This document shows, piece by piece, positions 2,085-30,308 of a stretch of 64,000 nucleotides of DNA. Below the pieces are notes generated by a model. That model was not told where the DNA came from and did no database searches. It saw nothing but the letters and a program-made list of their open reading frames with translations. Within the stretch, counting starts at the first letter, position 1. Each line of letters opens with the position of its first letter. Source of the DNA: an uncultured Gammaproteobacteria bacterium (GTDB taxonomy: Bacteria; Patescibacteriota; Microgenomatia; Levybacterales; GWA1-39-11); contig CAYVFE010000001.1 of NCBI GenBank assembly GCA_964450885.1, positions 160,489 to 224,488 on the forward strand. The letters are read 5' to 3'. The position numbers and the translations under genes are program-made.

Positions 2085-4065
<1,981 letters not shown>

Positions 4066-13514: not shown

Positions 13515-13551
13515 TTGACAACAGTTAGCAGTCATGATATATTAGTGCTAA
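13515..13551 (+). promoter_or_regulatory. TTGACA -35 box followed by a CIRCE-like operator (TTAGCAGTC-N9-TAGTGCTAA) upstream of hrcA
   Basis: ttgaca at 13515-13520. ttagcagtc atgatatat tagtgctaa at 13525-13551, with the same left arm as the hsp20 site. An extra half-site ttagcactt sits at 13577-13585, just before the hrcA start. Confidence 0.55.
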
Positions 13552-14811: not shown

Positions 14812-14835
14812 AAAAAATATTAAAATAAAATAATT

Positions 14836-16749
14836 ATGGGAAAAATAATAGGAATAGATTTAGGAACAACTAATTCGTGCATGGCCGTCATGGAAGGCGG
14901 TAGCCCTAAGGTGATCTTTAATTCTGAAGGGAAAAATACAACACCCTCAGTCGTTGATCCAGTAGACGGGGTAGTAGGAGATGTTGCAAAACGTCAGATG
15001 GTTCTAAAGCCAGAGCGCGTTATCTACTCTGTAAAGCGTTTGATGGGTAGACGTTTTAAGGACAAGGAAGTAAAGGAGGCCGCAGAATTTTTACCTTATA
15101 AAATAGTTGACGGAAAAAATGGGATGGCTGCCGTTGAAGTCGATGGAAAAACATACACCCCACAGGAAATATCAGCAAAAGTACTACAGAAATTAAAGAA
15201 AGACGCAGAAGACTATCTGGGAGACAAAGTAACACAGGCAGTTATTACTGTTCCCGCATATTTTGATGATGCGCAGCGACAAGCTACAAAACAAGCTGGA
15301 GAAATTGCGGGTCTTGAAGTTTTGAGAATCATAAATGAGCCAACTGCAGCGGCGCTTGCCTATGGTATGGATAAAAAACATGCTCATACTATTGCAGTTT
15401 ACGACCTGGGAGGAGGAACTTTTGATATTTCGATTTTAGAGTTAGGCGAAGGCGTTTATGAGGTGAAGGCTACAAATGGAGACACTCATTTAGGAGGAGA
15501 CGATTTTGATCAGGTGATAATAGATTATCTGGCTGATGAATTCAAAAAGGAAAATAGTGTTGACCTAAAAGCTGATAAGCAGGCTTTGCAAAGACTTAAA
15601 GAGGCAGCTGAAAAAGCAAAGATTGAACTTTCTTCCTCAAAAGAAGTTGATATCAATCAGCCATTTATTACGATGTCTGCAAGCGGCCCGCTGCATTTGA
15701 CTACAAAATTATCACGTTCTAAGTACGAATCTTTAGTTTCGGATCTTGTCAAAAAGACTTTTGACCCCGTAAAACAGGCTCTCAAAGATGCAGGCGTAGA
15801 TGCTTCAAAGATAGATGAGGTAATCATGGTCGGAGGAATGACCAGAATGCCAAAGATCGTTGAGGAAGTAAGTAGCTTTTTCGGGAAAGAACCCAATAAG
15901 AGCGTTAACCCAGATGAGGTTGTTGCTGTGGGTGCTGCAGTACAGGCTGGAGTTTTGGGAGGGGATGTAAAAGACGTTCTGCTTCTTGATGTTACTCCGC
16001 TTACGCTAAGTATTGAGACATTGGGAGCCGTTGCTACACCTCTTATTGAGAAGAATTCTACGATTCCAACTAAAAAATCTCAGGTATTCTCAACCGCTGC
16101 TGACAACCAGACACAGGTGGATATTCATATTTTGCAGGGTGAACGGCCGATGGCTGCTGACAACAAGGATTTGGGAAGATTTATTCTTGATGGTATTCCG
16201 CCAGCTCCGCGTGGCGTACCACAAATCGAAGTTACATTTGATATCGATGCGTCAGGAATACTCTCCGTTACCGCAAAAGATAAGGCAACAGGAAAAGAAC
16301 AAAGTATAAAAATTACCGGGTCCACTGGGCTTTCTGACGAAGAGGTAGATAAGATGACAAAAGAGGCTGAGATGAATGCGGAGGAGGACAAGAAGAAAAA
16401 AGAGCTTATTGATGCAAAAAATAGCGCCGAGGCTTTGATAATAACCGCAGAGAAAAGCATGAAGGATATAAAGGATCTGCCCGAAGATGATAAGAAAGGA
16501 CTTGAGGATCTGATTGAAGAACTTAGAAAGACGCTTGAGGGCGAAAGCAAGGATGAAATTGAGGAAAAGACACAAAAACTCTCAGAAGCGCTATCAAAGG
16601 TGGGCGAAAAGATGTATTCCCAGCAGGGAGAGCAGTCTTCGGATGAAAAGTCCGATAATGAAGATGAAAAAAGCGGAGAAAAGGATGAAGACAAGAAAGA
16701 CAAAGAGAATGTTGAAGAAGGCGAAGTCGTAGACGACAACAAAAACTAA
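14836..16749 (+). CDS. dnaK: Chaperone DnaK (Hsp70)
   Basis: [19 protein letters not shown] and acidic C-terminal tail. 637 aa. Confidence 0.97.
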
Positions 16750-16801
16750 CAATTTCCCCTAAAGCGTTGTGTTGATTCCTATTGCATGATACGATGTTAT
16801 T

Positions 16802-17098
16802 ATGCAAGATTGTGCTCCAAATGAGATATTGACAGACTTTGGATGTATCCCTGATGATCCTGTTGGATTCGTGCAAAAGTTCTATGGAATAGGTCTGGGA
16901 TTTATAGGTATGGTCGCGCTGATTTTTATCATAATTGGTGGGTATAACATAATGACCTCTCAGGGTGATCCTACAAAGCTTGCGACCGGAAAATCCTTCA
17001 TTACATATTCGATAATTGGGGTATTATTGGCGATTTTTGGTTTTGTTTTCATAGAAGTGGTTACTGGAGATATATTAAGAATTCCAGGATTTAACTAA
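16802..17098 (+). CDS. TrbC/VirB2-like pilin-type small membrane protein
   Basis: 98 aa. Two long hydrophobic helices (GIGLGFIGMVALIFIIIGG and IIGVLLAIFGFVFIEVV) separated by a short polar loop, with Cys pair C4/C15 near the N-terminus. Immediately upstream of the VirB6-like gene. Confidence 0.5.
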   Translation: MQDCAPNEILTDFGCIPDDPVGFVQKFYGIGLGFIGMVALIFIIIGGYNIMTSQGDPTKLATGKSFITYSIIGVLLAIFGFVFIEVVTGDILRIPGFN

Positions 17099-17100
17099 AG

Positions 17101-19494
17101 ATGAAGAAATTACTGCCCATAATTTGTTCTATTCTATTTGCTGCATTTGCTTTTTTCGCAGTAGTAAATACTTCTAATGCTCAGGTTATCGGCACAACTC
17201 CAACTCCCGAATCCCCATCAGGGGACTGGAAGAAAGATCAAGAGGTAACCTTTATAGGTAAGACCGCTGCCCGATCAAACGAATTTTTGCAATGGACGCT
17301 CCAGAATTATCAATGGATAAGTATCACTCCGGAAAATCCTACAAATCCTCTTGCTGAGTTCTGGGGTGTTATAAGAAATATTGTCTTGGCGCTTCTTGTG
17401 CTTTTTATTCTAGCAGCTGCATTTGTGATTATTATTACCCGTGGTCAGAACATAACCATAATGCGGTTTATCCCACGATTTATAATAATCATTCTTCTGA
17501 TTGTATTTTCTTTTGCTATCCTTAGATTTTTGTATCAATTTTTCGACGTAATCCAGGGATTTTTCCTTCGGACTACTGATCCTGCAGGAGGACCCGACAG
17601 ATTTATAGAGCCGAAAGACCTTTTATATATAGCTTTTGATTATAAGAGCTTCATAGGATTTAGGCAGGTTGGGATGGAGTTTGATGAGTCTGCTTATATA
17701 TCGCTTCTTTTGGTGAAAATTACTGCGGTTACATATTACGTGATGACAGGAATTCTTTTGATCAGAAAAATCATACTATGGTTTTTCATAATTATCTCAC
17801 CTGTTTTCCCATTGTTGCTATTTTTCAGGCCTCTAAGAAATACTGCAAAGATATGGGTGGGCGAATTTTTTAGGTGGCTTCTTTACGCTCCTCTGTTTGC
17901 AATATTCTTGCATGGGCTTGTCGTAATGTGGAGGGATAGGATTCCTTTGTCTTTTGATTTTTCTCAGGTTGGAACACAGATTTATCCTACTGCTATAAAT
18001 ATTTTACTAGGAGGTCCGGGACAGCAGATAGGGCTCAATAATTCTGTTAACTTTCGTGATACATTCGCACTTTATGTTGTAGCGCTTCTTATGCTTTGGG
18101 TGGTCATTCTTCTCCCCTGGCTATTGTTGCAGATATTTTTGGATTATCTAAATAATCTTTCGCTCTCTGAGACTCCTTTTTATCAAAGAATAGCCCAGAC
18201 GAATATCCCATTTATAAATAGGCCGATTGGTAAGGGACCAGATACGCCACCATCCGTTCCACCACAGGGTCCAGCATCAGCAGGGCTCGCCCGTAGTCTT
18301 CCATTTATGAACAAACGTGCTATGCAGATTCCTGTTAAGAAAGTTACAAGTGCCGACAATAACAAAAACATCTCATCTCGTCAAAATATCTCTAATATTT
18401 CATCTGAGACAAGCGAGGTAGTAAGACTTGCGAACCTTTCGGTTCCCAAGATGAGAGATATTGCCCGCATGGAATCGGCATCTATTACTAAGAATCAGTC
18501 AGTCCAAAACCAAAAGACGGAGATAACTAACAAATTGACGCAGATATCATCTCCCGCTTCTGCGCCGGCGATTGAGCGCGAAAAGATCACCACCATAAAA
18601 GAAAAGCTTGTACAGATGCAGCAAAAAGGAGATCCAGTCGCAAGTTCTATATTAAGTGCTTCAAGATTAGGATCGAGAGGAGCAATGACATCGGAGATGA
18701 TCAAAAACAAACTGGCGGTAACTTTGCAGCATATTGCAAGTCCTTCGATGGCTTTGACTGCGCAAGAGAGGCAGAAGGTGCAAGATATACGACAAGAGCT
18801 TTTGTCAGCTCAACAACAAGGCAATCCGCTTGCGACATATATCTTGGATATGAGTGAGAAAGTAAGTGGGGAAAACGTAAATGAAAAGGAGAAGCAGTCA
18901 CTTATAGATAGAGTAAAAGAGAAACTTTCAGCAGAAAAACAGAAAGGAAACAAACTTGCCGAAAAAGTGCTTCCAGCAGAAGGTGCAACAACGATCGCTG
19001 CAGCATCTCTTCCTAGTGTCAATCGAGTTCAGCAGGTAAGTCTGGATGAGTACGAAGAAGTCAAAAATATTTGGAAAGAAAACTATACGAATATGGAACC
19101 CCCTGCGCCTCTTGATGGTAAGACACTGACCAAGGAAGAATGGATCAATAATGATATTCAAAAAATAGATGAAACTATAAATCTACTTAGTTCTCCCGAC
19201 CAGACACAGGTACAAAAGGGCATGGAAATGGTTTCCGACATATTGCCGTTTCTACTCATAGGAGGTTTCTCAAAGGCTGAGGTCATTGCCTATCTTAAAG
19301 CAAAGCAAGCTGCCGGCAAAGAAGTCGCAGGGCAGGTTGAACAGAAGAGGAATGAGGAGGATACACTTCTTGAGAATAAGCCTAAGAAGGAAGAAAATTC
19401 AGCTGAGATGACGATGAAAAGAGAGTTGCCAATAGAAAACGCCCAGGAAAATAGTGGAAATCCTGATAAAGATCCATCAACAAATGCATCTTAG
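17101..19494 (+). CDS. VirB6/TrbL-like polytopic membrane protein with long C-terminal repeat-containing tail
   Basis: Signal peptide, about 6 TM helices and a roughly 400 aa hydrophilic tail. The tail has three imperfect repeats (EKLVQMQQKGDPVASSIL / QELLSAQQQGNPLATYIL / KEKLSAEKQKGNKLAEKVL). 2 nt gap after the pilin-like gene. Confidence 0.55.
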   Translation: MKKLLPIICSILFAAFAFFAVVNTSNAQVIGTTPTPESPSGDWKKDQEVTFIGKTAARSNEFLQWTLQNYQWISITPENPTNPLAEFWGVIRNIVLALLVLFILAAAFVIIITRGQNITIMRFIPRFIIIILLIVFSFAILRFLYQFFDVIQGFFLRTTDPAGGPDRFIEPKDLLYIAFDYKSFIGFRQVGMEFDESAYISLLLVKITAVTYYVMTGILLIRKIILWFFIIISPVFPLLLFFRPLRNTAKIWVGEFFRWLLYAPLFAIFLHGLVVMWRDRIPLSFDFSQVGTQIYPTAINILLGGPGQQIGLNNSVNFRDTFALYVVALLMLWVVILLPWLLLQIFLDYLNNLSLSETPFYQRIAQTNIPFINRPIGKGPDTPPSVPPQGPASAGLARSLPFMNKRAMQIPVKKVTSADNNKNISSRQNISNISSETSEVVRLANLSVPKMRDIARMESASITKNQSVQNQKTEITNKLTQISSPASAPAIEREKITTIKEKLVQMQQKGDPVASSILSASRLGSRGAMTSEMIKNKLAVTLQHIASPSMALTAQERQKVQDIRQELLSAQQQGNPLATYILDMSEKVSGENVNEKEKQSLIDRVKEKLSAEKQKGNKLAEKVLPAEGATTIAAASLPSVNRVQQVSLDEYEEVKNIWKENYTNMEPPAPLDGKTLTKEEWINNDIQKIDETINLLSSPDQTQVQKGMEMVSDILPFLLIGGFSKAEVIAYLKAKQAAGKEVAGQVEQKRNEEDTLLENKPKKEENSAEMTMKRELPIENAQENSGNPDKDPSTNAS

Positions 19495-19533
19495 CATTTG
19501 TTGAAGTAGTTGCTATTTGTCTATAATAAAAAT

Positions 19534-22443
19534 ATGTTTGGAGATTTATTTAAGAAAAAACAATACGAGCAAAATCCGGCGGCTCCTCAAAATCCGCAAG
19601 GACCATTTGCGCCTAATAATCAGTATCCTGTACAGCAAATGCAGCAGGGGCAAATGATGGGACAGCCTCAACAGATGCCAGCGCAAATGATGCCAAATCA
19701 AGGGATTGCTGGGTCGACGATGGATCCTGGAAAAAGGCAGAATGTAAATGCTCTTTCCCATTTAGATTCGCGCTCCAATCAGATACTTCAGCAGGCTCAG
19801 AGCGAAGCGAAGAAGTATCAGCATCCAGCGATAGAGCCAGATTTACTGCTTCTCTCTCTCACCTATGACAGAGAGATATATAAACTTTTGCAAAAGCATG
19901 AAGTGGATGTAGCATCCCTTGCAAAAGAAATAGAGTCCAAGCAGCAGGTAGGAACTGCGACAACTCCTCCTATTCTAAGTGAAAGTACTCAGCGTATTTT
20001 TGATGAATCTTATAAATTCGCTACAAAAAGAGCTTCAAGTTTTATTTCTCCGGAGGATTTGCTTTTGGCAGTCTTTTCATCGGAGGCGGCCCAAGCTCTT
20101 TTGACCTCAAAAGGAATCGATAAAAAAGATTTTGAGCAGACACTGGAAAAAGATTCAAAATTCAAGACCGGTAAAAAAAGCGTTATTGAGGAATATGGTA
20201 TAGATTTGACAGCTGAGGCTGGGAGCGGAAAGCTGGATCCAGTCGTCGGACGCGAGAAAGAAATAGAGAGGACGATTCATATATTGCTTCGAAGGAGCAA
20301 GAATAACCCAATCCTTATTGGAGAGGCGGGAGTAGGTAAAACTGCAATAGTTGAAGCACTCGCTCAGTTAATCGTAAAAAAGCAGGTCCCTAAGGATTTG
20401 CAGGATAAGAAAATAATTCAACTCGATCTAACATCGCTCATTGCGGGTGCATCTCATAGAGGGGAATTTGAGGAGAGGTTGAAAAACGTAATAAAAGAGG
20501 TGATGCTTTCTGAAGGAAGACTGCTGCTTTTCATCGATGAGATCCATACATTAATAGGTGCCGGAACTACTGATGGTGCGATGGATGCCTCAAATATTAT
20601 AAAGCCATATCTCGCGAGAGGGCAGTTGCAGCTGATCGGTACGACAACGACAGCAGAGTATAGAAAATATTTCGAGAAAGATAAAGCATTTCAAAGAAGA
20701 TTTCAGGCGATCATCATAGATGAGCCATCGATAGAGACCGCTATTGAGATGATGAAGGTTCTTCAGGTAAAGTATGAGAAATTTCATAACGTTACCATAA
20801 CGCCCGAAGCTATAGAGTATTCGGTTAAACTTTCTAAAAAGTATATTGGAGAACGATATTTACCTGATAAATCAATCGATCTTATAGACGAAGCGTCTGC
20901 TGAGGTAAAACTTATGGCTGCGGAGGGGAAGCGAAAAGATACTCAGGTGGTTCGATCTGACATAGAAAAAGTCGTAAGTGCTTGGACAGGAATACCCATA
21001 ACAAAGCTTACAGAGGATGAAAGCAAGAAGCTGTTAGGTCTTGAAGATCTGATCCATAAAAGACTTATAGATCAGGAGGAAGCTGTAAAATCCGTCTCAG
21101 AGGCGGTTAGACGCGGGCGTATAGGACTTGCCTCAGCAAATCGCCCGATTGCATCTTTTATATTTCTAGGCCCTACAGGAGTCGGTAAGACAGAGCTTGC
21201 AAAAACGCTTGCAGAAATTTTATTCGGCCGTGATGATGCGATGGTGAGGCTTGATATGTCTGAGTATATGGAAAAGCATGAGGTTGCAAAGCTTATCGGT
21301 GCACCCCCTGGGTACGTCGGTTATGAGGAAGGCGGACAGCTGACAGAGGCGGTTAGGCAAAAACCTTATTCTATAGTTCTGCTTGATGAGGTTGAGAAAG
21401 CACACCCTGACGTCTTTAATATTCTTTTGCAGCTTCTTGAGGATGGAAGACTTACAGATAATAAAGGAAATACTATATCATTTAAAAATACAATAGTTAT
21501 AGCTACATCAAATATTGGTAGTAAGCTTATCCAAGAGACTTTGACTACTCAAAAAGAAGTAAAGGCGCTATCTGTTGCTGCAGATAAAGATAGTAAAAAT
21601 GATAGGCAGAATGGTCAGGTTCAATCTGCTCAGCCGCAAGTTTCCCAGCCTCAATCCTCTGCTCCAAGCGACCAAAAGAAACCAGAGATGACAGAGGAGG
21701 AAAAAATCGATGAGAAAGTATTCAAAGAGCTCTCAAAAAATCTTATGGATGAGTTGATAAAGTTTTTCAGACCAGAGCTTATAAATCGTTTTGATGGGGT
21801 CGCAATATTTAAGCCACTAACAGAAAAGTATATGAATGCGATCGCCAAGTTAGGCATAAAAAATACCCAGAAATTACTCAAAGAACAGGGATTTGATCTT
21901 CAAATAACCGATAAGGCTATTGAAGTTCTGGCAAAGGATGGATTTGATCCCGTTTACGGAGCAAGACCCTTAAGACGTCTTATCCAAACAGTTATAGAAA
22001 ACCCGATAAGCATCGAGATAATCGGAAAAAAATTTATCCAAGGAGATATCATAATTGTTGATTATGATGAAGTTACTAAGAATTTTACCTTCAAAAAATC
22101 GCCTAATTCAAAAAGTTTGCAAAATAATTCTACGCAGCCAGGAGGAATTCCACAAAATCCTATAGATCCGAATATAGCTCCAGGTGATGCTTTGAATGTG
22201 AATGGTCAAATGCAAGGCCAACCAAATATGCAAAATGACATGAATGCAAATAATGGTTATCAGCAGGTTGGTCCGATACAAAATGGACAGGCGCAAATGC
22301 CACAACAGCAAAACGGTGGCATGATAGTAGATCCGGCAGCGCCAATTACCCAAGATCCTGCTCCCGCTCCTCCTCCTGTTGACCCGACAACGGGAGAGGC
22401 TATGACGATGGCAGTTAACGGAAATAATCAGAATCAATTATGA
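19534..22443 (+). CDS. ClpC/ClpB-family Hsp100 AAA+ unfoldase (two AAA+ modules, no M-domain, no ClpP-binding loop) with Gln/Asn/Pro-rich N- and C-terminal extensions
   Basis: Start taken at ATG 19534 (MFGDLF). The 19510 ORF start is TTG. Clp_N repeats. D1 has GEAGVGKTA and LLLFIDEIHTL. D2 has FLGPTGVGKTE and SIVLLDEVEKAHPDVFNILLQ. There is no coiled-coil insertion between DLIDEA and SAWTGIPI, and no [IVL]GF tripeptide. Confidence 0.85.
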   Translation: MFGDLFKKKQYEQNPAAPQNPQGPFAPNNQYPVQQMQQGQMMGQPQQMPAQMMPNQGIAGSTMDPGKRQNVNALSHLDSRSNQILQQAQSEAKKYQHPAIEPDLLLLSLTYDREIYKLLQKHEVDVASLAKEIESKQQVGTATTPPILSESTQRIFDESYKFATKRASSFISPEDLLLAVFSSEAAQALLTSKGIDKKDFEQTLEKDSKFKTGKKSVIEEYGIDLTAEAGSGKLDPVVGREKEIERTIHILLRRSKNNPILIGEAGVGKTAIVEALAQLIVKKQVPKDLQDKKIIQLDLTSLIAGASHRGEFEERLKNVIKEVMLSEGRLLLFIDEIHTLIGAGTTDGAMDASNIIKPYLARGQLQLIGTTTTAEYRKYFEKDKAFQRRFQAIIIDEPSIETAIEMMKVLQVKYEKFHNVTITPEAIEYSVKLSKKYIGERYLPDKSIDLIDEASAEVKLMAAEGKRKDTQVVRSDIEKVVSAWTGIPITKLTEDESKKLLGLEDLIHKRLIDQEEAVKSVSEAVRRGRIGLASANRPIASFIFLGPTGVGKTELAKTLAEILFGRDDAMVRLDMSEYMEKHEVAKLIGAPPGYVGYEEGGQLTEAVRQKPYSIVLLDEVEKAHPDVFNILLQLLEDGRLTDNKGNTISFKNTIVIATSNIGSKLIQETLTTQKEVKALSVAADKDSKNDRQNGQVQSAQPQVSQPQSSAPSDQKKPEMTEEEKIDEKVFKELSKNLMDELIKFFRPELINRFDGVAIFKPLTEKYMNAIAKLGIKNTQKLLKEQGFDLQITDKAIEVLAKDGFDPVYGARPLRRLIQTVIENPISIEIIGKKFIQGDIIIVDYDEVTKNFTFKKSPNSKSLQNNSTQPGGIPQNPIDPNIAPGDALNVNGQMQGQPNMQNDMNANNGYQQVGPIQNGQAQMPQQQNGGMIVDPAAPITQDPAPAPPPVDPTTGEAMTMAVNGNNQNQL

Positions 22444-22895
22444 TAAGAAATCTTTCAATAAAAAATAAAAAGTTGATAATAGTTTTGATATTTATAGCTG
22501 TTCTTATTCCTATAATAATATTTATTACAGCTTCAGTAGCTAAGTCAAATTCAAAAATTGATGACATAGCACCTACTCCTATCGATGAGATTCCAAGTGA
22601 GGAGGATGAAAATGCTTACGAATTAGAGCTTCTCGTAGGTGTTCCTACTATCATACCCGGGACTGATATAGAGCTCAAATTAGTCTCAACAAGTAATCAG
22701 CCTGCTGATTGTTTCGATTGTATAGCTTTGACAATAGTCGAGGTGCAAAGCGCAGGAGAAGTGGCTGTCTGGGACTATGCCTGCGGAGGATTTTCGGGGG
22801 AGTGTAATTATCAATTCAAAAAATTTGGATATGTAATCGAAGCCTTAGACTTGAAGATTGATTCGATGGTAGTAAAAGTTTATCCGGAAGAGTGA
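22440..22895 (+). CDS. Small N-terminally anchored protein with four Cys
   Basis: 151 aa, N-terminal TM helix IIVLIFIAVLIPIIIFI, Cys in CFDC...C..C context. ATGA overlaps on both sides. Confidence 0.45.
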   Translation: MIRNLSIKNKKLIIVLIFIAVLIPIIIFITASVAKSNSKIDDIAPTPIDEIPSEEDENAYELELLVGVPTIIPGTDIELKLVSTSNQPADCFDCIALTIVEVQSAGEVAVWDYACGGFSGECNYQFKKFGYVIEALDLKIDSMVVKVYPEE

Positions 22896-25800
22896 TGAAG
22901 AATAATATCCCCCAACCCGTGATATTTGGGATCATCGGGCTAGTTCTGTTTGCGATAGCCTTTTTCGCAATCCTTATTAGTTTGAATAATAATCCCAAAG
23001 CGAATGTGTCGATTTCCGGAGATGATACTATCCGGGAAATTACTGTCAAATATCCAGAGAGCGGATATATAGCCAGATCTACAAATGAGAATGCGGCAAG
23101 AGAGTATTTAGCTGAAAGCGGAATTGTAGGCGAGTCATATATAGATAATTCGGAGATAGCAAGGTCGGTTGAAGACGAAGATGATAGTAGTAGTTCAAGC
23201 GAACATAACATTCAAGTTCCTGCCAGTCATTATTTCTTTCAACAGTATATCGATGGAGTAGCAGTTCAGGACTCTATTTTAGGAGTCCATGTTCGCAATA
23301 ACAATGAAGTGTATTATGTTTCTGGAAATGCGCTGGTTACGTTTGATGTCGAAAGTGAGAATATTACTGTTGAAGAGGCCGTAAGTAAGGCGGTTGATGA
23401 AGCAAAAAAAGAAGTAGGTGAAACAGTAGATATGGAGCTGTCTACCGCAGAAAAAGTGATCTATAACAGTAAACTAATAGGTCTGTCTAGCGACAATAGA
23501 AATATCCCGACAGTAAAAGTGACAGTGAGCACTGAGGCAAATTCTTTAAATTTTGCCAAAGAGTATTTTATATCCCTTATAGATGGGGAAAAACTTGAAG
23601 AAAGAACACTCATTTTTCACGCACTCAACAGAACTATATTTGACTGTGGCGGATCCCAAACTTCGTGTTCGCAGGTTAGAAGCGAAGGAGCGCCTCCATA
23701 TGGAGCCAGGGATATAGATGACGGATATAATTACTTTGGCGATACATATAATTTCTATTTCAATAACTACCAAAGAGATAGTTATGACGGCAATGGTGCC
23801 CAGCTAAGAGGATATATGAACTATTATACGGGGAGTCCTAATGCAGGATGGGATTCGAAAGCTGGCAGGATGATCTATAGCTCGAATATGGTGACCCCAG
23901 ATATCACCGGACATGAGCTGACTCATGCAGTAACATCTTCTACAGCAGGGCTAATATACAACGCTCAATCAGGAGCCATAAATGAGGGGATGTCTGATGT
24001 GTTCGGGTGGGCTGTTGATCCTAACGATTGGACTTTGGGTGAAGGGTCTGCTTTGGGGGTCATAAGATCTTTAAGTAATCCCCCCTCCCATAATCAACCA
24101 GATAGACTTTTCGCATCTAACTATTGGTGCAGTTCAGCTGATAACTACGGTGTACATCAGAATAGCGGAATAATAAATAAAACCTTCTATCTATTAGTAG
24201 AAGGTGGCTCATTTAATACATGTAACGTATCTTCGATCGGCAAAGATAGAGCGCTGGCGATATTCTATCGCGCTTTAACCCGATATCTGACTCCGTCTTC
24301 TAATCTAAAAAATCTATATGATTCCTTACTACAATCATGTAACGATTTGTATGCAGGTGATGCGGGAGTTTGTGAGCAGGTAGATATTGCTTCACAGGCA
24401 ACAGAGATAGATCAACAGCCTGCTGGAAGCCAGTCAGGACCTGTGTGTTCTGGAAATTCTGGACAACCTCCTAAGTGCTCTGGAAATCAGGGAGGAACGA
24501 TTCCGACATCAGTACCGAACCAGCCAACATTAACACCAACGTCTGGAGCTCAGGTGAGATATTATATTTCAGGTAGGATATATCAAGATAATAACGGTAA
24601 TACCCAATATGATACCAGTGACACTCCATTGAGCAATCAGTCGGTGGGTCTTTCTGGGAGTTTTACAGACACCGTCAGTACGCTTTCTGATGGGACATTT
24701 ATTTTCGATAACCTTTTTAACGGAACATTCAATGTTTCTTATGATAGTAGTGCAAGAAATGATATCTCGCTTTCCCAGACGCAGAGTGCGGTGAGCGTCA
24801 ATTTTATCGTGACCAAGGATCCGTTAAATCCGACGCCAACTATAGTAGCTGGTCCTACATCCGTTCCTACGACTCCAACCCCTGCTGCATCCACCCCTAC
24901 CCCTGTATCTGCTACCACGATCCCTACTCCTACAACACCGATCCTATACACATGTGAGTATGATCCGAAATGTGCCACTGGAAAAAAGAATATACAGCTA
25001 TGTCCGCTTGTATGCACAGAGAAATTTGGCGATGGGGGAGGCGGGCGTGGAGGCTCGTCAATTCCTCCAGCACCTACGAGTACTCCTGGTGGCGGATCAG
25101 TGCCAACGTCTACTCCGCAGCCTGGTCAGGTGGCTACATCTACTCCTATTACTGGAAATGGGCAAGGTGCACCCTTGGATGTAGGGAGTCTCGTAAATGA
25201 TGTTTCGGAATCAAATATCAGAAACTATATGCAAAGTCTTGTTGATGATGATGATATCGCGGGGGATGACCAGTCACAAACAAGATACACCTCTACGAAT
25301 GGGAATCAGACAGAGGCAAATTATATATACAATACCCTTCAAGGTTTTGGATTAAACGTGGAGTATCAGCAATTTAATTTTTCCGGCAATACTACAAGAA
25401 ATATAATCGGGAAAGTTCCTGGGAAAGATGCAAATAGAGTTTATTTAGTTACAGCTCATATGGACTCGACATCCGGCTCGACTGATCCTGCTCCAGGCGC
25501 AGACGATAATGCCAGTGGGACAGTAGCAGTTATGGAGGCAGCAAGGGTACTAAAGACCATGCAGGACAAGTTGAATGTTTCGCTAGAATTTATTTTGTTC
25601 TCCGGGGAAGAGCAAGGGCTTTATGGGAGTTCGTATTATGCAGGAAATATTCCTTCAGGGAAAAAAATAGAGGGAGTTATAAATTTGGATATGATAGGAA
25701 ACGATTCAGGGAGCGCGTGTGTGAATTTTGGATATAAAAATTATAATGGTGGAGATATCATGTCAAACAAGATAATAGAGATGATCCAGAAGTATAATAT

Positions 25801-26014
25801 AAATCTTGGGGGATCATCTGTCTCCACATCAAATGCCAGAAGTGATCATGCTCCATTCTGGAGTAGAGGAATTCCAGCAATCTTTGGACATGAATGTACA
25901 TTTAGCTCTGTATACCATAGTACTAACGACAAGATCGAATTTATCAATTTTGCACAAATAACAAATACTGCAAAAGGAGTAGTTGCTGCGGTTGCAGAAT
26001 TATCAACACAATGA
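22892..26014 (+). CDS. Secreted fusion protease: M4 thermolysin-like endopeptidase (FTP+PepSY propeptide) - Cna-B/SdrD-like beta-sandwich - Pro/Thr linker - M28 aminopeptidase
   Basis: Signal anchor. FTP pattern HYFFQQYIDGVAV. HExxH in TGHELTHAV, third zinc ligand in NEGMSDVFG. M28 ligand pattern AHMDS, GADDNASG, GEEQGLYGS, NLDMIG and HSTNDKIEFIN. Confidence 0.8.
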   Translation: MMKNNIPQPVIFGIIGLVLFAIAFFAILISLNNNPKANVSISGDDTIREITVKYPESGYIARSTNENAAREYLAESGIVGESYIDNSEIARSVEDEDDSSSSSEHNIQVPASHYFFQQYIDGVAVQDSILGVHVRNNNEVYYVSGNALVTFDVESENITVEEAVSKAVDEAKKEVGETVDMELSTAEKVIYNSKLIGLSSDNRNIPTVKVTVSTEANSLNFAKEYFISLIDGEKLEERTLIFHALNRTIFDCGGSQTSCSQVRSEGAPPYGARDIDDGYNYFGDTYNFYFNNYQRDSYDGNGAQLRGYMNYYTGSPNAGWDSKAGRMIYSSNMVTPDITGHELTHAVTSSTAGLIYNAQSGAINEGMSDVFGWAVDPNDWTLGEGSALGVIRSLSNPPSHNQPDRLFASNYWCSSADNYGVHQNSGIINKTFYLLVEGGSFNTCNVSSIGKDRALAIFYRALTRYLTPSSNLKNLYDSLLQSCNDLYAGDAGVCEQVDIASQATEIDQQPAGSQSGPVCSGNSGQPPKCSGNQGGTIPTSVPNQPTLTPTSGAQVRYYISGRIYQDNNGNTQYDTSDTPLSNQSVGLSGSFTDTVSTLSDGTFIFDNLFNGTFNVSYDSSARNDISLSQTQSAVSVNFIVTKDPLNPTPTIVAGPTSVPTTPTPAASTPTPVSATTIPTPTTPILYTCEYDPKCATGKKNIQLCPLVCTEKFGDGGGGRGGSSIPPAPTSTPGGGSVPTSTPQPGQVATSTPITGNGQGAPLDVGSLVNDVSESNIRNYMQSLVDDDDIAGDDQSQTRYTSTNGNQTEANYIYNTLQGFGLNVEYQQFNFSGNTTRNIIGKVPGKDANRVYLVTAHMDSTSGSTDPAPGADDNASGTVAVMEAARVLKTMQDKLNVSLEFILFSGEEQGLYGSSYYAGNIPSGKKIEGVINLDMIGNDSGSACVNFGYKNYNGGDIMSNKIIEMIQKYNINLGGSSVSTSNARSDHAPFWSRGIPAIFGHECTFSSVYHSTNDKIEFINFAQITNTAKGVVAAVAELSTQ

Positions 26015-26646
26015 AAAAAATACTACTGATATTAACTCTATTTCTACTGGCATTTTTATTTTTTAGAGGAGAGGGGTATGCACAAGAGAATGGAGGAATA
26101 CTTGTTGTTACAGTTTATGAGACTAGAGAGGATATAGATATATTATTTGAAAATAGCCTTAGGGTCCTCGAGTACCTAGAGGGCGTCGATGTAGAGGAGC
26201 CGATATTTTTATCTCTTGTGAGTGATCAGCAGATAAAAAATCTACAAGACAACAATCTAGATCCACAAGTTATTGATGATAATGCTGATCTTGATTCCTA
26301 CATTCTTTTGTATAATCCTTTAGAAAATCAGGGAGAGAAGCTTTCTGGTTTTGGTGAACCTATAGAAATATCCAAACACTATACGCTTCTCAAGCTATCT
26401 CCTGGTCAGGAATTCTCCCATGAGGGAGAAGGTGTTGCTTTTTTCGATATTCCATTTCAAGAGGTTGTTGTTACTCCTCCGCTTAGAACGAAAACAGCAA
26501 CTGAAGCTATAGATGTAGCTACTGAAAATGAGCAAAGCATAAATCCTGTAATATTTGTAATTTTAGCGATAGTTATAGTAGGTTTGGGAATAGGGGCATT
26601 TTTCTTCATAAGAAATAAAAGAAACGGTGATTATCAGCCTCAATAA
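26011..26646 (+). CDS. Hypothetical exported protein with C-terminal TM anchor
   Basis: Signal peptide MKKILLILTLFLLAFLFF. C-terminal VIFVILAIVIVGLGIGAFFFIRNKRNG. ATGA overlap with the protease gene. Confidence 0.45.
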   Translation: MKKILLILTLFLLAFLFFRGEGYAQENGGILVVTVYETREDIDILFENSLRVLEYLEGVDVEEPIFLSLVSDQQIKNLQDNNLDPQVIDDNADLDSYILLYNPLENQGEKLSGFGEPIEISKHYTLLKLSPGQEFSHEGEGVAFFDIPFQEVVVTPPLRTKTATEAIDVATENEQSINPVIFVILAIVIVGLGIGAFFFIRNKRNGDYQPQ

Positions 26647-26690
26647 TTTCTAGCAATCGACTTGCTTTTTTGCTAAAATAAAGGCTTACT

Positions 26691-27557
26691 ATGGCAAAAG
26701 ATTTTTATGATGTTTTGGGCGTGAAAAAAGGGGCAAGTCCTGAGGAGCTTAAAAAAGCCTATAGGAAGCTTGCTGTCGAGTTTCATCCTGACAAGAACAA
26801 ATCGAAAGAGGCAGAAGGCAAATTCAAGGAGATAAACGAAGCCTATGAAGTGCTTTCAAATCCTGCGAAGCGCCAAAATTATGATCAATTCGGATCTAGC
26901 GGAGCTCAAGGCAGCGGACCTTTTTCGGGTGGAAATCCATTTGGTGGCGGAGGTGGTCAAGGTCCATTCAAATACTATTATTCTTCAAGCGGGGGAGGCT
27001 CACAGGGATTTGATTTCGGTGGGACAGATCCTTTCGATATTTTCGAACAATTTTTTGGTGGGGCTTCTCCTTTCGGTCGGCAAAAACCGTCATATTCTCT
27101 TGCTATCGATTTTATGGATGCGGTAAAGGGAGTAACAAAAAGAATCGACTTGAATGGAAAAAAAAGAGATATAAAAATTCCAGCCGGAATAAACTCTGGG
27201 CAAAGAATTAGATTTGATGATTTTGATATTGTAATTGATGTAAGACCTGACGATTTTTTTGAGCGCCGTGGCGCAGATGTATTCTCCGAAGAAGATGTGC
27301 CATTTACTATGGCGATTCTGGGGGGAGTAAAGGAAATAAGGTCGTTAGAAGGTAAGGTTAAGCTTAAGATTCCAGGAGGAACCCAGCCGGATACGTTGAT
27401 AAGGATTAAAGATAAGGGAATAAAGGAGATCAATGGAAGAGGGCATGGTAGCCACTTTGTAAGAGTAAAGGTGGAGATACCAAATAAGATAAATTCCAAG
27501 CAGAAAAAACTCATTGAGGAATTTGAGCAGGAGAGCTCAAAAAAGGGTTGGTTCTAA
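26691..27557 (+). CDS. dnaJ: DnaJ-family co-chaperone lacking the zinc-finger domain (CbpA/class II-like)
   Basis: J-domain DFYDVLGV...HPDKN, Gly/Phe-rich segment and C-terminal beta-sandwich domains. No CxxCxGxG repeats. Confidence 0.85.
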
Positions 27558-27607
27558 GATTCTTCGAGCTTGATTTGAGGTTTAACTATCCCTAAACTAG
27601 ATATAGG

Positions 27608-27961
27608 ATGAAAACTGCCCTGATGTATCCATTTGAGCTATTAATATTTTGGTATCATGATATTTGTCTGGGTGCGATAGATTATTTTACCCGCCTAAAT
27701 TCGTATATTTTGCAGGTTCTCTCTACGCCACTGCTTTTGAGAACATTCTTCAAGCCTCTCAAGAACGAGTACAGAAAGGGGCTCGTACTGTTCTCGATAG
27801 TCTTTGGAATTCTCGTGAAGACTTTTTTGATCGGATTTTCACTGACGGTCCTGTTGGTCCTTATAGTCATTGAGCTTTTTATTGTGGCGCTACTTTTTTT
27901 GTCGCCAATAATCTTAATCTATTTATTATATGCAGGAGAAAATATTTTTCAATTTATATAG
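27608..27961 (+). CDS. Small hypothetical membrane protein
   Basis: 117 aa with 3 hydrophobic helices. Overlaps the 5' end of the next gene in another frame. Confidence 0.3.
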   Translation: MKTALMYPFELLIFWYHDICLGAIDYFTRLNSYILQVLSTPLLLRTFFKPLKNEYRKGLVLFSIVFGILVKTFLIGFSLTVLLVLIVIELFIVALLFLSPIILIYLLYAGENIFQFI

Positions 27962-30308
27962 ATTTTTAACTAGCAAGGAGGGTGTTCTATTCAGAGCCTT
28001 ACTTTTCATTGTCTTGACACTTGTTCTCCTTCTGTTTGTTGATGAGCCCTCCGTTTTGTTAAGGATACTGCCTTTATATCTTATCTTTTTGCTACAGGAA
28101 TTATTCATTCATAAAAAACTTGAAAGAATTCATCCGGAAAAAAATGTTAACGACGCAAATGACTTAATTGACGCAACGGTATTTGATATAAGGTCAGAAC
28201 TGTCTTCTTCCAAGAGTGCTTTCACTCTTGTCGAGTCATTACTTATATCAAAGAAAGGGAAATTTATTCGGGAGCGGATAAGCCCCGAGCTTAAATTGAC
28301 TGATGCAAATATAACTAAAGATGCACTTTTGGATAAAGCTTCTGCTTTAGTGAAGGCATTAGAGGGAAAATATATTACATCTTTGGATATTATTACAGCC
28401 TACCTGTTGCTACAGGAGGAAAGTGCACGAATTCTTCAAGACAATAATTTGAATGAAAAAGATTTGCTTACTATTTTGTACTGGGCAAGGAAAAAATTTC
28501 ATATAGGTGAGGTAGAGCCTCCAGCATTTCTGTTTCATGGGAGTGGTGCATTTGATTCTTTGGTTTACGGGTGGACGCCGGAAACAAAAAATTATACATC
28601 TGATTTCACCACCGAGGTGTTAAGCCTTGATTACGAACCCAAAATAATTGGCCGCGAAAAAGACTATAGAGAATTTGTAGAAAGTCTTTCAAAAGGCTCT
28701 GCCAGCAATGTCCTTCTTGTGGGAGATCCAGGAGTTGGCAAGACTACCCTTGTTATGAAATTCGCCCACGATGCTTATAAGGGACTTCTTACAAAAAAAC
28801 TTAAGAATAAAAGAATATATTTTCTTTTTGTAGACAGATTGTTATCTGGTGCAGGCGACAAGGGGGAGATAGAAAGTCGAATCGGAAACATATTCACCGA
28901 AGTCTCACACTCCGGGAATATAATCGTTTTTATCGAGAATATAGAAAATATTTTTGGCGGCGGCGGCGGATTTGAGTTCGATATGTCGGGCGCTATACAA
29001 GCATATCTTGAAAGTAACAGGGTGCAAATCATCGGAACTATTAATCCTCAGGCTTACAAGGATTCTATCGCAACAAAACCTTCGGTACAATCTCTATTTT
29101 CAGAGATAGATTTGGATGCACCTGATCCGAAAATAGCTACATTCATGCTTATAGAAGAAGTAAATATAAGAGAAAAAATGTCAAAAGCGATAGTTACATA
29201 TGGCGCTATAAAAGAAATTGTAGAATCATCAGATCTTTATTCTCCTGATTCTTCTCTTCCCGGATCCGCTGTCAAGCTATTGGAGGATGTAATGGTCAGG
29301 AGTTTTAATTCAGGAAAGAATTTAATTACACGACATGAGGTTTCTGAGATGATAAAGGATAAAACGGGGGTTAAATTGTCTGCGCCTACAGAAGAAGAGA
29401 AGAATACGTTGCTTGCTATGGAGGAGACTTTGCACAAGAGTCTTATCGGCCAAGACGAAGCGGTTTCTTCGGTCTCCAACGCATTAAGACGACTTAGAAG
29501 TGGACTTAGAAAAAAGCAAGGCCCGATTGCATCCTTTCTATTTCTGGGCCCGACAGGAGTAGGTAAAACGACCACTGCAAAACTTTTAGCAAGGGAATAT
29601 TTTGGTAGTGAAGACCGGATGATAAGGGTCGATATGAGTGAGTACCAAACGCAAGATAGTATAAAAAAACTATTAGGCGAGATGCCTGGGGAACAAAGTT
29701 TCAAGAATTCTTTTGTAGACAAAATATCAGAGACCCCTTTTTCCATAGTTTTACTGGATGAATTCGAGAAAGCGCATCCTCAGCTTCTTGACGTTTTTCT
29801 ACAGGTTCTTGACGAGGGATTTGTCACAAATAATAAAGGTAAAAAAATATCGTTTACAAATGCGATAATAATCGCAACTTCAAATGCCGGAAGTCAATTT
29901 ATAAGAGAGAAAATAGAGTCAGGAGGCAGCGCTGTAAAGGATGAATTGATAGATTATATTTTGACAAAAAGTATATTCAAGCCGGAGCTTGTCAACCGTT
30001 TTGATGACGTTGTAGTATTCCATCCGCTATCAAAAGAGCAAGTTGTAAAAATTACAGAGTTAATGCTAACAGATTTAAAGGATAAGTTGATGGAACAATT
30101 TATTGATATAAGTTTTTCTGATAACGCGATAGACAAAATTTCTATAGAATCATTTGACCAAGATTTTGGAGCCAGAAATGTGAGAAGATATATAGAAGAG
30201 AATATTGAAAATCTCGTATCAAGAATGATACTTGAGGGTAAAATCAGCAAGGGTGAGAGATTTATTGTTGGCGTTGGAGATAACGGAGATTTTATTATAG
30301 AGCAGTAA
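27930..30308 (+). CDS. Membrane-anchored ClpC-like Hsp100 AAA+ ATPase with degenerate first AAA+ module
   Basis: Two N-terminal TM helices (LFRALLFIVLTLVLLLFV, LRILPLYLIFLLQELFI). D1 has Walker A GDPGVGKTT but the Walker B region reads IIVFIENIEN, where canonical members have IDEIH. The position normally holding ERRFQ reads QSLFSE. D2 is intact with FLGPTGVGKTT and SIVLLDEFEKAHP. Confidence 0.8.
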   Translation: MQEKIFFNLYRFLTSKEGVLFRALLFIVLTLVLLLFVDEPSVLLRILPLYLIFLLQELFIHKKLERIHPEKNVNDANDLIDATVFDIRSELSSSKSAFTLVESLLISKKGKFIRERISPELKLTDANITKDALLDKASALVKALEGKYITSLDIITAYLLLQEESARILQDNNLNEKDLLTILYWARKKFHIGEVEPPAFLFHGSGAFDSLVYGWTPETKNYTSDFTTEVLSLDYEPKIIGREKDYREFVESLSKGSASNVLLVGDPGVGKTTLVMKFAHDAYKGLLTKKLKNKRIYFLFVDRLLSGAGDKGEIESRIGNIFTEVSHSGNIIVFIENIENIFGGGGGFEFDMSGAIQAYLESNRVQIIGTINPQAYKDSIATKPSVQSLFSEIDLDAPDPKIATFMLIEEVNIREKMSKAIVTYGAIKEIVESSDLYSPDSSLPGSAVKLLEDVMVRSFNSGKNLITRHEVSEMIKDKTGVKLSAPTEEEKNTLLAMEETLHKSLIGQDEAVSSVSNALRRLRSGLRKKQGPIASFLFLGPTGVGKTTTAKLLAREYFGSEDRMIRVDMSEYQTQDSIKKLLGEMPGEQSFKNSFVDKISETPFSIVLLDEFEKAHPQLLDVFLQVLDEGFVTNNKGKKISFTNAIIIATSNAGSQFIREKIESGGSAVKDELIDYILTKSIFKPELVNRFDDVVVFHPLSKEQVVKITELMLTDLKDKLMEQFIDISFSDNAIDKISIESFDQDFGARNVRRYIEENIENLVSRMILEGKISKGERFIVGVGDNGDFIIEQ

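Follow-up and report, generated by a model that had tools for sequence, protein, structure and literature searches.

Why would a single exported protein combine a thermolysin-type (M4) endopeptidase with an aminopeptidase of family M28, and what are the two small anchored proteins encoded on either side of it? This question is raised by a locus in the 64,000-nucleotide stretch of DNA analysed here (the window), in which all features described below lie on the forward (+) strand. As judged from its sequence, the locus is unusual in that each of the two enzyme units comes with a small anchored partner of its own. The two open reading frames named in an earlier sequence-only reading are both present and overlap: 22440..22895 encodes a 151-aa protein, and 22892..26014 encodes the M4–M28 fusion pre-pro-enzyme, which has 1040 aa when read from the GTG at 22892 and 1039 aa when read from the ATG at 22895, the start chosen in the public gene calls (P0001). 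Motif and residue positions are given in the 1040-aa numbering. At the junction (...GAG TGA TG AAG), the TGA of the small ORF overlaps the GTG by 4 nt and the ATG by 1 nt, and a GGAAGAG purine run lies just 5' of the protease start. The chain of overlaps is longer than first described: the small ORF is joined through an ATGA overlap to the end of a ClpC-like gene at 22443, and a 211-aa ORF that begins at 26011 shares an ATGA with the protease stop in the same way. Because identical or homologous proteins with conserved synteny are found on independent assemblies, we take these ORFs to be real genes and not products of chance.

A Kyte-Doolittle scan of the protease revealed a 23-residue hydrophobic stretch at residues about 10-32 (22919..22987), from which we infer a signal-anchor and an exported, N-terminally anchored enzyme. 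The earlier description of the protein as secreted is better worded as exported, with this signal-anchor ahead of a propeptide. The propeptide region comprises residues about 36-255 (22997..23656; the boundary of the mature enzyme is estimated) and contains an FTP motif at 112-146. In the whole protein, FTP scored 20.2 bits, just below the Pfam cutoff of 21, and it rose to 22.9 bits when the propeptide was scanned alone; the motif was also found in relatives. The PepSY element that had been proposed beside it gave no Pfam match in the propeptide even at E≤10.

The thermolysin-type M4 catalytic unit follows at residues about 256-505 (23657..24406). Peptidase_M4_C matched with an E value of 1.1e-35 in the whole-protein Pfam search, and Peptidase_M4 matched with 3.1e-11 over profile positions 67-145 only, the N-terminal beta subdomain being short or divergent. 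The putative catalytic residues are His341, Glu342 and His345 (HELTH, 341-345), Glu365 (NEGMSD, 364-369), Tyr356, Asp417 and His421. In the alignment with thermolysin (E 4e-44), the HExxH motif, E166, Y157, D226 and H231 were all matched, and identity to thermolysin-like enzymes was 40-45% over about 225 aligned residues. By these alignments, the M4 catalytic set is intact.

Beyond the M4 unit lies a linker and beta-sandwich region (24407..24946) that is common to M4-only and S8 relatives. The linker part carries a conserved pair of cysteines, C519 and C529, and the beta-sandwich, at about 557-655, resembles SdrD_B and CarboxypepD_reg domains and is followed by a Pro/Thr linker (656-685). SdrD_B reached 21.5-24.6 bits where 29.7 are required, and CarboxypepD_reg was also sub-threshold in Pfam; an SdrD_B-like identity is only suggestive. 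Of the Cna-B/SdrD-like sandwich and Pro/Thr linker that had been read as joining the two enzymes, the linker is present and the SdrD assignment is sub-threshold. Next come a four-cysteine motif, YTCEYDPKCATGKKNIQLCPLVC (C688, C694, C704, C708; 24947..25024), a second linker (residues 712-775; 25025..25216) with a high content of Gly, Pro, Ser and Thr, and the M28 aminopeptidase unit (residues about 776-1040; 25217..26011), which matched Peptidase_M28 with an E value of 4.5e-42. The M28 motifs are AHMDS (855-859), GADDNASG (869-876), GEEQG (905-909), NLDMIG (931-936) and YHSTND (1008-1013). They contain H856, D871, E906 (catalytic), E907 (ligand), D933 and H1009, the counterparts of H97, D117, E151/E152, D179 and H256 in AAP/SGAP. 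Alignments with SGAP, AAP, YwaD and LapA (E 1e-18 to 5e-22) matched all ligand positions, and by this measure the M28 set, like that of M4, is intact. With both domains above Pfam thresholds and every catalytic or metal residue aligned with thermolysin or AAP/SGAP, the proposed fusion of two complete proteases was borne out. The protease has an even number of cysteines, 14; the 11 that fall in the M4, linker and C-terminal-motif regions are shared by the M4 relatives, as would fit an extracytoplasmic protein.

The four-cysteine motif provides a record of how the fusion arose. All M4-only relatives stop 3 residues past it, and in the fusions it lies 332-341 residues before the stop. By this comparison the motif is a fossil C-terminus, and the fusion is an old M4 C-terminus to which a linker and M28 have been added. 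A standalone M28 protein, consisting of a signal peptide, a P/T linker and the enzyme, is 55% identical to residues 741-1038 of the fusion; the linker behind its signal peptide is homologous to residues 712-775, which mark the fusion joint. Its gene is overlapped by a homologue of the 211-aa ORF in an unrelated gene context. We conclude from these comparisons that the fusion arose by the in-frame joining of a two-gene cassette to an M4 gene. The cassette would have encoded a secreted M28 and a 211-aa C-terminally anchored protein, and the M4 protein would have taken the place of the M28 signal peptide. Monophyly of the fused forms alone was recovered in none of 60 bootstraps in both trees, and the S8-fused M28 was sister to the M4-fused M28 in 60/60. 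These trees indicate that the M28 cassette was gained and lost repeatedly, and its recurrent loss implies that the fusion is dispensable.

This history bears on whether the two enzymes work as one chain. It is possible, if doubtful, that the fusion provides only joint export and 1:1 production, the linkers being cut after export by M4 or another protease, so that the enzymes act separately, as in Legionella and Pseudomonas, with no processive single-chain action. The repeated switching between fused and unfused forms suggests near-equivalence, the chain contains two long low-complexity linkers (506-556 and 712-775), the same linker comes right behind the signal peptide in the standalone M28, and LapA is cleaved by ProA in Legionella. 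However, fusions arose independently in at least four M4 lineages, in addition to the S8–M28 fusions, which suggests a benefit of linkage, and the Pro/Thr/Gly-rich linkers would be poor M4 substrates, given the established preference of M4 enzymes for a hydrophobic P1'.

The 151-aa protein is predicted to consist of an N-in transmembrane anchor (about 10-34), a disordered linker and an eight-stranded all-beta ectodomain (60-149; AlphaFold model pLDDT 80.5). A search space of 5.8 billion proteins yielded a family of 21 members. Its four cysteines, which had been noted before, are present, and alignments show that both C91xxC94 and C115x6C122 are conserved in the family; the latter pair staples a conserved GG[F/I]xG hairpin loop. 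One member has neither C115 nor C122 and keeps C91xxC94, and this joint loss suggests disulfide pairing of 91 with 94 and of 115 with 122. In 12/12 loci the gene immediately precedes that of M4, whether or not M4 is fused, and the spacing ranges from -29 to +61 nt. This linkage marks the 4-Cys protein as the partner specific to M4 and as the older of the two. The suggestion that it is a protease partner therefore stands in that it is conserved and overlaps or abuts the protease gene, but the partnership is not specific to the fusion, as the protein accompanies all M4-only relatives. No similarity to the M4 propeptide was detected (hhalign probability 9%, TM helix only), and solved structures gave no significant sequence match. 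The role of inhibitor or chaperone that had been suggested for it is plausible. Our preferred guess is a substrate-like inhibitor, in which the disulfide-stapled loop would be presented to the M4 active site, where enzymes of this family favour a bulky hydrophobic side chain at P1'.

A variant of the locus strengthens the idea of an inhibitor or chaperone. On a sister contig, the same slot is occupied by an S8–M28 fusion (Pfam S8 4.9e-57, M28 7e-40). The protein encoded upstream of it shares its anchor with the 151-aa protein of the window (E 4e-13), and homology of its ectodomain was found both with the S8 prodomain (E 6e-18) and with a Fervidolysin_NPro-like protein (E 7e-14; Pfam 1.9e-10). 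By homology, this protein is the same N-terminal anchor joined to a copy of a subtilase prodomain. The swap also bears on a reading in which the small protein is neither inhibitor nor tether and uses its CxxC motif to form the disulfides of M4. Such a helper would accord with the extracytoplasmic position of that motif and with the 14 mostly conserved cysteines of the protease. We consider it very unlikely, since the predicted fold is all-beta and not thioredoxin-like, and since in the S8–M28 variant the Cys-rich middle and the M28 parts are retained but the ectodomain has given way to a prodomain copy.

The 211-aa protein (p211; 26011..26646) has a cleavable signal peptide (predicted cut after …GYA, before Q). 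Two ferredoxin-like alpha/beta lobes make up its ectodomain (about 30-147), PPLRTKT is a conserved segment, and the C-terminus carries a transmembrane anchor (about 173-203) and a basic tail. It shows no sequence match to I9 or any Pfam family. Its gene was found 3' of every M28-bearing gene at 9 distinct loci, including that of the standalone M28, and was absent at all M4-only loci (n=8). By this distribution, the M28 unit arrived together with the p211 gene. A protease accompanied by an anchored, class-matched partner resembles an effector/immunity pair, and adjacent genes encode a large membrane protein and one resembling a T4SS pilin; an epibiotic cell might thus degrade surface proteins of its host or neighbours, with the partners as immunity factors. 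This seems quite unlikely to us, as the pilin match is sub-threshold, the block showed neither secretion-system ATPases nor other effector features, PADLOC and other defence or toxin families gave no match, and an aminopeptidase would be of little use in attack.

The host is a Levybacteria-like CPR bacterium with a tiny genome. In the window, the protease module is set inside an hrcA-grpE-dnaK…dnaJ frame. This setting, like the M28-linked p211 gene and the fossil C-terminus, had escaped the earlier reading. A CIRCE-like inverted repeat, TTAGCAGTC-N9-TAGTGCTAA (13525..13551; 2 mismatches to the consensus; chance expectation 0.03 matches), overlaps a strong sigma-70-like promoter 5' of hrcA (13515-13543; 11/12 matches, extended TG). 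It is followed, by Pfam assignment, by hrcA (13592-14314; HrcA), grpE (14356-14811; GrpE) and dnaK (14836-16749; HSP70), and then by a 98-aa T4SS-pilin-like membrane protein (16802-17098; T4SS_pilin sub-threshold, 24.2 versus 26.6 bits) and a 797-aa protein with several predicted TM segments (17101-19494), both syntenic neighbours of the protease module across loci. A 977-aa ClpC/ClpB-like double-AAA+ ATPase (19510..22443; Clp_N, AAA, AAA_lid_9, AAA_2, ClpB_D2-small), Q/P-rich at both termini, is encoded 5' of the small ORF at all loci where the sequence reaches that far. Downstream of p211, dnaJ (26691..27557; DnaJ, DnaJ_C) closes the frame, and conserved neighbours follow: a 117-aa membrane protein (27608-27961) whose gene overlaps that of a 792-aa Clp-like AAA+ protein with N-terminal hydrophobic segments (27930-30308). 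Genes from 13592 to 32404 run tightly packed in one direction, and no convincing terminator was found across this span. The CIRCE-like repeat is the probable control point of this co-directional block, and the protease genes are probably transcribed from the hrcA promoter under its control. The element looks functional in this genome, given a second CIRCE in front of an Hsp20 gene.

This setting could mean that the protease serves the envelope and not nutrition: a stress-induced surface enzyme, co-regulated with DnaK, DnaJ, GrpE and two Clp-type ATPases, would clear damaged or misfolded surface proteins. The position of the genes between dnaK and dnaJ behind the hrcA promoter with its CIRCE, the linkage to the ClpC-like and Clp-like ATPases and DnaK/DnaJ that is kept across Levybacteria-type loci, and the second CIRCE are all in line with such a role. 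Nevertheless, we think it unlikely, because gene order in a streamlined genome need not mirror function, the block lies after dnaJ and outside the operon in one relative, and broad-specificity M4 and M28 pairs are typically nutrient-acquiring exoenzymes.

Taken jointly, the evidence is best explained, in our moderately confident view, by an anchored M4–M28 feeding enzyme with two class-matched partners. The chain would leave the cytoplasm through Sec and stay attached to the membrane, and the M4 unit would cut off its own propeptide. The endopeptidase would then cut external proteins, and the tethered aminopeptidase would trim the fragments to free amino acids at the surface of a cell whose biosynthetic capacity is small; the earlier proposal of processive degradation for feeding is plausible. 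Each anchored partner would bind the catalytic unit of its own class in trans, much as a prodomain does, and could be an inhibitor or immunity protein, a folding helper or a surface tether. Against this explanation, the linkers may be cleaved after export, in which case the enzymes may not remain one chain; the heat-shock-block position could mean quality control; and the M4 N-terminal subdomain fits its Pfam model only in part.

Among known systems, the M4 unit is closest to thermolysin, bacillolysin and aureolysin (MEROPS family M4), with which it shares HExxH and the downstream Glu, equivalents of Tyr157, Asp226 and His231, and an FTP-type propeptide. It differs in that its match to the N-terminal Pfam model is confined to the final 79 positions, in giving no PepSY match, in having a signal-anchor in place of a short signal peptide, and in adding a C-terminal beta-sandwich, a 4-Cys knot and an M28 domain. 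The M28 unit shares five zinc ligands and the catalytic Glu with SGAP (Streptomyces griseus), AAP (Vibrio/Aeromonas), YwaD (Bacillus) and LapA (Legionella). Unlike these enzymes, it sits behind an M4 enzyme and for that reason lacks its own signal peptide, PA domain and propeptide, and a gene for a dedicated anchored protein of 211 aa invariably comes after it. A parallel to the fusion is the extracellular teamwork of the M4 endopeptidase ProA and the M28 aminopeptidase LapA in Legionella; LasB and PaAP of Pseudomonas presumably form a similar M4/M28 pair. ProA activates LapA, which yields amino acids for nutrition (PMC5904407). There the genes are separate and M4 removes the PA domain of M28, whereas the window has one chain and no PA domain.

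For the partners, operon-encoded inhibitors offer a comparison, such as AprI with alkaline protease and the staphostatins with staphopains. Emfourin, an inhibitor of the M4 protease protealysin, is co-transcribed with it from the same operon, and an immunity role has been proposed (PMC9505478). The 151-aa protein resembles emfourin in being small and encoded beside its protease; it has no detectable sequence or fold relation to it, it is membrane-anchored and extracytoplasmic, and any inhibitory role is putative. It is likewise an all-beta fold unrelated to the Inhibitor I9 and Fervidolysin N-prodomain type. The anchored protein upstream of the S8 variant, in contrast, is itself a domain of that type, and the N-terminal lobe of p211 belongs to the same general beta-alpha-beta-beta-alpha-beta fold class.

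The 151-aa protein with four Cys (the small protein) is encoded at 22440-22895 on the forward strand. The protease that follows it begins either at GTG 22892 (1040 aa, the form numbered here) or at ATG 22895, the start used in public gene calls (P0001, 1039 aa), and ends at 26014. Both open reading frames lie where the sequence-only reading had placed them. The junction reads GAG-TGA-TG-AAG, so the stop codon of the small ORF overlaps the protease start, as had been claimed, by 4 nt for the GTG start or by 1 nt for the ATG start, and a GGAAGAG run lies just 5' of that start. The chain of overlaps is longer than had been noted: the end of the preceding ClpC-like gene (19510-22443) shares ATGA with the small ORF, and the protease stop overlaps by ATGA the start of a further ORF (26011-26646, forward strand), which encodes a 211-aa protein, p211. 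An assembly or frameshift artefact as the source of the fusion was rejected, because the same architecture is present in at least six clusters at 50% identity and in independent assemblies.

The protease had been described as carrying a complete M4 unit and a complete M28 unit on one chain, and all of the motifs quoted for it were found in the protein. The Pfam M4 profile (PF01447) matches residues 277-349 with E 3.1e-11 and 44.3 bits against 22.4, over profile positions 67-145 of 145 only, and M4_C (PF02868) matches residues 352-503 with E 1.1e-35 and 123.3 bits against a gathering score of 24.4. In a search of solved structures, residues 270-492 aligned to thermolysin with E 4e-44. In this alignment HELTH (341-345) corresponds to H142-E143-xx-H146 of thermolysin, the HExxH zinc-binding and catalytic motif, and NEGMSD (364-369) corresponds to INEAISD with the third zinc ligand E166, the Glu of NExxSD lying 20 residues past HExxH. 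LIY (Y356) pairs with thermolysin LIY (Y157) and ADNYGVH (D417, H421) with QDNGGVH (D226, H231); Y356, D417 and H421 are invariant in an alignment of 16 relatives.

The Peptidase_M28 profile (PF04389) matches residues 837-1032 with E 4.5e-42 and 144.4 bits against a gathering score of 21.3, over profile positions 1-191 of 193, and this part of the protein aligned to SGAP, AAP, YwaD and LapA with E values from 1e-18 to 5e-22. The co-catalytic zinc ligands H97, D117, E152, D179 and H256 of AAP, and their SGAP equivalents, are matched by H856, D871 (bridging), E907, D933 and H1009. GEEQG (905-909) corresponds to AAEEVG of AAP, in which the catalytic Glu immediately precedes the ligand Glu, and E906 is thus the catalytic residue next to E907. 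The solved relatives that best match the M28 unit are all aminopeptidases, and the unit itself is probably an aminopeptidase rather than a carboxypeptidase or a cyclase. Every catalytic and ligand position is filled in the alignments to thermolysin, AAP and SGAP, and the HMM search assigns the C-terminal region to M28, not to a non-peptidase fold, so the reading of the chain as a double protease stands. That finding is real and had been read largely correctly; the functional statements attached to it are best taken as proposals.

The flanking domains are less clearly assigned than the sequence-only reading had suggested. The FTP part of the propeptide scored 22.9 bits against a cutoff of 21 only when the propeptide was scanned alone, and the claimed PepSY part gave no Pfam match at E<=10 in the propeptide region. 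The Cna-B/SdrD-like beta-sandwich did not find support in Pfam, since SdrD_B (PF17210) scored 21.5-24.6 bits, below its gathering score of 29.7; relatives match SdrD_B or CarboxypepD_reg weakly. The N-terminus is a 23-residue hydrophobic signal-anchor, not a short signal peptide. Of the 14 Cys of the protease, the 11 that lie in the M4 unit, the linker or the C-terminal motif are conserved among M4 relatives, and the even number together with this conservation fits an extracytoplasmic protein.

Both catalytic domains are ordinary, and the chemistry of the fusion is likely to be predictable from them; their combination is a rare and unannotated domain architecture. A word-indexed search of 5.8 billion proteins returned 891 matches for M4, and among the 120 listed, four also carried M28. 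When 1.84 billion cluster representatives were searched exhaustively with HMMER and the candidates were scanned with Pfam, about six clusters of M4–M28 fusions emerged at 50% identity, namely P0003 (the cluster of the window's protein), P0162, P0006, P0185, P0175 and the fragment P0163, together with three S8–M28 fusions (P0257, P0277 and P0300). Two of the latter, P0257 and P0300, have an extra C-terminal CAP (cysteine-rich secretory protein) domain, which indicates that the module can grow to three functional units. None of the M4–M28 or S8–M28 fusions found bears a functional name, and no paper describing an M4–M28 fusion was found in the literature that was searched. The relatives that bear organism names belong to Candidatus Levybacteria/Levyibacteriota; the protein of the window is itself encoded on a contig of 588 kb.

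The origin of the fusion is recorded in the position of a 4-Cys motif, YTCxxDPxCxxGxKNIQLCPLxC. In the alignment of 16 relatives this motif lies three residues before the end of every M4-only protein, and in the fusions it is internal (residues 686-708 of the window's protein, with the Cys within 688-708) and is followed by a linker of Gly, Pro, Ser and Thr and then by M28. The second half of the record is a metagenomic contig (L018) with a standalone 349-aa M28 protein, which has a signal peptide and a Pro/Thr linker and is 55% identical to residues 741-1038 of the window's protein, linker included. A p211 homologue overlaps this standalone gene in an otherwise unrelated neighbourhood. On the simplest interpretation, M28 and p211 arrived together as a two-gene cassette 3' of an M4 gene, after which the M28 protein shed its signal peptide and was fused in frame to the old M4 C-terminus.

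A neighbor-joining tree of each catalytic domain was tested with 60 bootstrap replicates. In the M4 tree the window's clade comprised four fused and two unfused proteins (60/60), and the fused members were monophyletic in 0/60 replicates. The unfused P0004, whose locus runs small protein, M4, dnaJ with neither M28 nor a p211 gene, grouped with the window's protein and P0002 in 57/60, and the fused P0162 was placed among unfused proteins elsewhere in 54/60. In the M28 tree the M4-fused copies were likewise monophyletic in 0/60 replicates and were interleaved with proteins lacking M4. Together these patterns indicate that the M28 cassette was gained or lost several times, always with the p211 gene, the number of events being approximate, given that the trees rest on simple distances. 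Taken with the standalone cassette, the fossil C-terminus provides an unusually clear record of a two-enzyme fusion forming and being lost.

The cassette can also be seen with a different endopeptidase. At locus L020 the slot flanked by the ClpC-like gene and dnaJ is occupied by a 981-aa protein that opens with an S8 subtilase, continues with the beta-sandwich and 4-Cys motif described above, and ends with a linker and M28. In the tree this M28 domain pairs as sister with the M28 of an M4-fused protein (60/60 bootstraps), indicating that the endopeptidase part was swapped within an existing fusion. From its N-terminal tail through the TM helix and linker, the small protein upstream matches its counterpart in the window (42% identity over 67 residues, E 4e-13). 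Its ectodomain instead duplicates the N-terminal prodomain of the S8 enzyme itself (E 6e-18) and is also related to a Fervidolysin_NPro-like protein whose gene lies 5' of an S8 gene at locus L009. Subtilase prodomains (family I9) are folding helpers and tight inhibitors of their own enzymes. Taken together, this role and the prodomain copy indicate that the anchored protein encoded upstream corresponds in class to the endopeptidase. The idea that the small protein is an inhibitor, chaperone or immunity-like partner draws its strongest indirect support from this swap, by analogy. At L009 (5502-10794), in one Levybacteria genome, S8 and M4 proteases both occupy the slot, each with its own small partner 5', and both end in an identical 4-Cys tail, YTCVPDQKCLDESGQNNIQLCPLKCTPL; the identity suggests that the tail serves both proteins as a sorting or attachment signal and stays uniform in a given genome.

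The small-protein family has 21 members. The gene lies directly 5' of the M4 gene in all 12 distinct loci with upstream sequence, with a gap of -29 to +61 nt, and in the same 12 it lies 3' of the ClpC-like gene whether M28 is present or absent. P0142 was left out of the family alignment because only its anchor matches, and it turned out to be the S8-type partner. A pattern search of GTDB genomes found the small protein at four loci, the window's genome not being among them. The four Cys are nearly invariant; one member lacks both C115 and C122 and keeps C91xxC94, and this joint loss suggests disulfides 91-94 and 115-122. AlphaFold models the protein (pLDDT 80.5) as a TM helix joined by a disordered linker to an eight-stranded beta domain, where a hairpin loop with a conserved GG[F/I]xG is closed by C115 and C122. 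Pfam, NCBIfam and PADLOC scans gave nothing usable for this protein or for p211, and PDB profile searches with both families returned TM-helix noise only. An NCBIfam match to MBA_Nterm_para was rejected, as it covered the TM region only (E 0.0046, 16.7 bits against 55).

The ectodomain as a copy of the M4 propeptide, in parallel to the S8 case, was rejected by family-to-family hhalign comparison (probability 9%, over the TM helix only). No sequence or fold similarity was found to solved inhibitors of the known M4 inhibitor families (SMPI, emfourin), and there was no protease inhibitor in the top 60 fold matches. M4 enzymes are known to prefer hydrophobic residues at P1', a preference that would be suited by the disulfide-stapled, Gly-rich loop of the small protein, in which one position is conserved as bulky and hydrophobic. 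This loop, the prodomain found in the same position in the S8 variants, and the precedent of emfourin, in which an M4 protease and its inhibitor are encoded in one operon (PMC9505478), lead us to favor a substrate-like inhibitor or "parking" role, to which we give rather less than an even chance. The main alternatives are that the protein is a folding helper or a surface tether.

The M28 unit has a partner of its own in p211, whose family has 19 members. A p211 gene follows every M28-bearing gene seen, whether M4-fused (the window, L002, L003, L004, L008 and L022), S8-fused (L020), standalone (L018) or multidomain (L024), and is absent 3' of M4-only genes in 8/8 cases. At L024 (3397-6534) the preceding gene encodes a more distant 864-aa protein with a Cys-rich N-terminal region, M28 and a large C-terminal domain, so the pairing reaches beyond the core clade. 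p211 starts with a cleavable signal peptide and is anchored by a C-terminal TM segment; its ectodomain is modeled as two ferredoxin-like lobes (pLDDT 84.5). A strongly conserved PPLRTKT occupies residues 156-162 (26476-26496) between the folded ectodomain and the anchor, where the model is of low confidence. When p211 was compared with all PDB chains by Foldseek, with the propeptide of the LapA precursor as the target, nothing significant came up. A protease prodomain or I9-like fold was considered for p211; the modeled folds of the small protein and p211 are compatible with prodomain-like binders and are no proof of such a role. Each of these uncharacterized families is tied to one peptidase class by an unusually clear-cut neighborhood rule, a link that the S8 variant supports as a natural swap, and both are promising as potential new protease inhibitors or chaperones.

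On the forward strand the gene order is hrcA, grpE, dnaK, a 98-aa T4SS-pilin-like protein, a 797-aa membrane protein, the ClpC-like gene, the small protein, M4–M28, p211, dnaJ, a 117-aa protein and a 792-aa Clp-like protein, and the same neighbors recur in Levybacteria loci with small rearrangements. A CIRCE-like repeat (13525-13551) overlaps a strong promoter upstream of hrcA, and no convincing terminator was found between dnaK and dnaJ; the protease genes are probably co-transcribed from this promoter and under heat control. A second CIRCE-like repeat (11172-11198, one mismatch) lies directly upstream of an Hsp20 gene (11231-11668), and GroES/GroEL-type genes are found at 2085-4065, chaperone genes being unusually dense in the window. 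An Rfam scan of the window gave no matches. The region 16802-19494 encodes the T4SS-pilin-like protein (sub-threshold Pfam match, 2-3 TM segments) and the 797-aa protein, which combines about six TM segments with a C-terminal half that is long and polar; every related locus keeps this pair 5' of the ClpC-like gene. The ClpC-like ATPase itself is extended at each end by a long low-complexity stretch rich in Gln, Pro and Asn, and its second AAA domain contains a polar insertion of about 55 residues. The 792-aa Clp-like AAA+ protein (27930-30308) lacks Clp_N and has hydrophobic segments at residues ~15-61, suggesting a membrane-anchored unfoldase; the gene for the 117-aa protein (27608-27961), a membrane protein, overlaps its gene, and the two are conserved together.

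CPR/Patescibacteria have minimal biosynthesis, and a chain that holds an endopeptidase and an exopeptidase at the surface would be a direct and testable route by which they could acquire amino acids. In the mechanism we propose, the fusion chain would be exported by Sec and then anchored, the M4 unit would process itself, external proteins would be cleaved internally and then trimmed from their N-termini to amino acids at the cell surface, and the two anchored partners would bind their cognate catalytic units in trans. A broader interpretation, which we consider improbable, is that the protease genes belong, as one layer, to a conserved surface machine that Levybacteria-type CPR bacteria build from cassettes and use for turnover of envelope proteins and salvage of amino acids. 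In such a machine M4 or S8 and M28 modules would be exchanged, each with a class-matched anchored binder, and wired into the HrcA operon with the soluble ClpC-like protein, the membrane-anchored Clp-like protein and the pair of VirB2-like and large membrane proteins. If this were true, the partners would found two families, both new, of proteins that act in trans like prodomains or inhibitors. The same division of labor as that proposed for the two units of the fusion has been shown in Legionella for two separate enzymes, ProA and LapA (PMC5904407).
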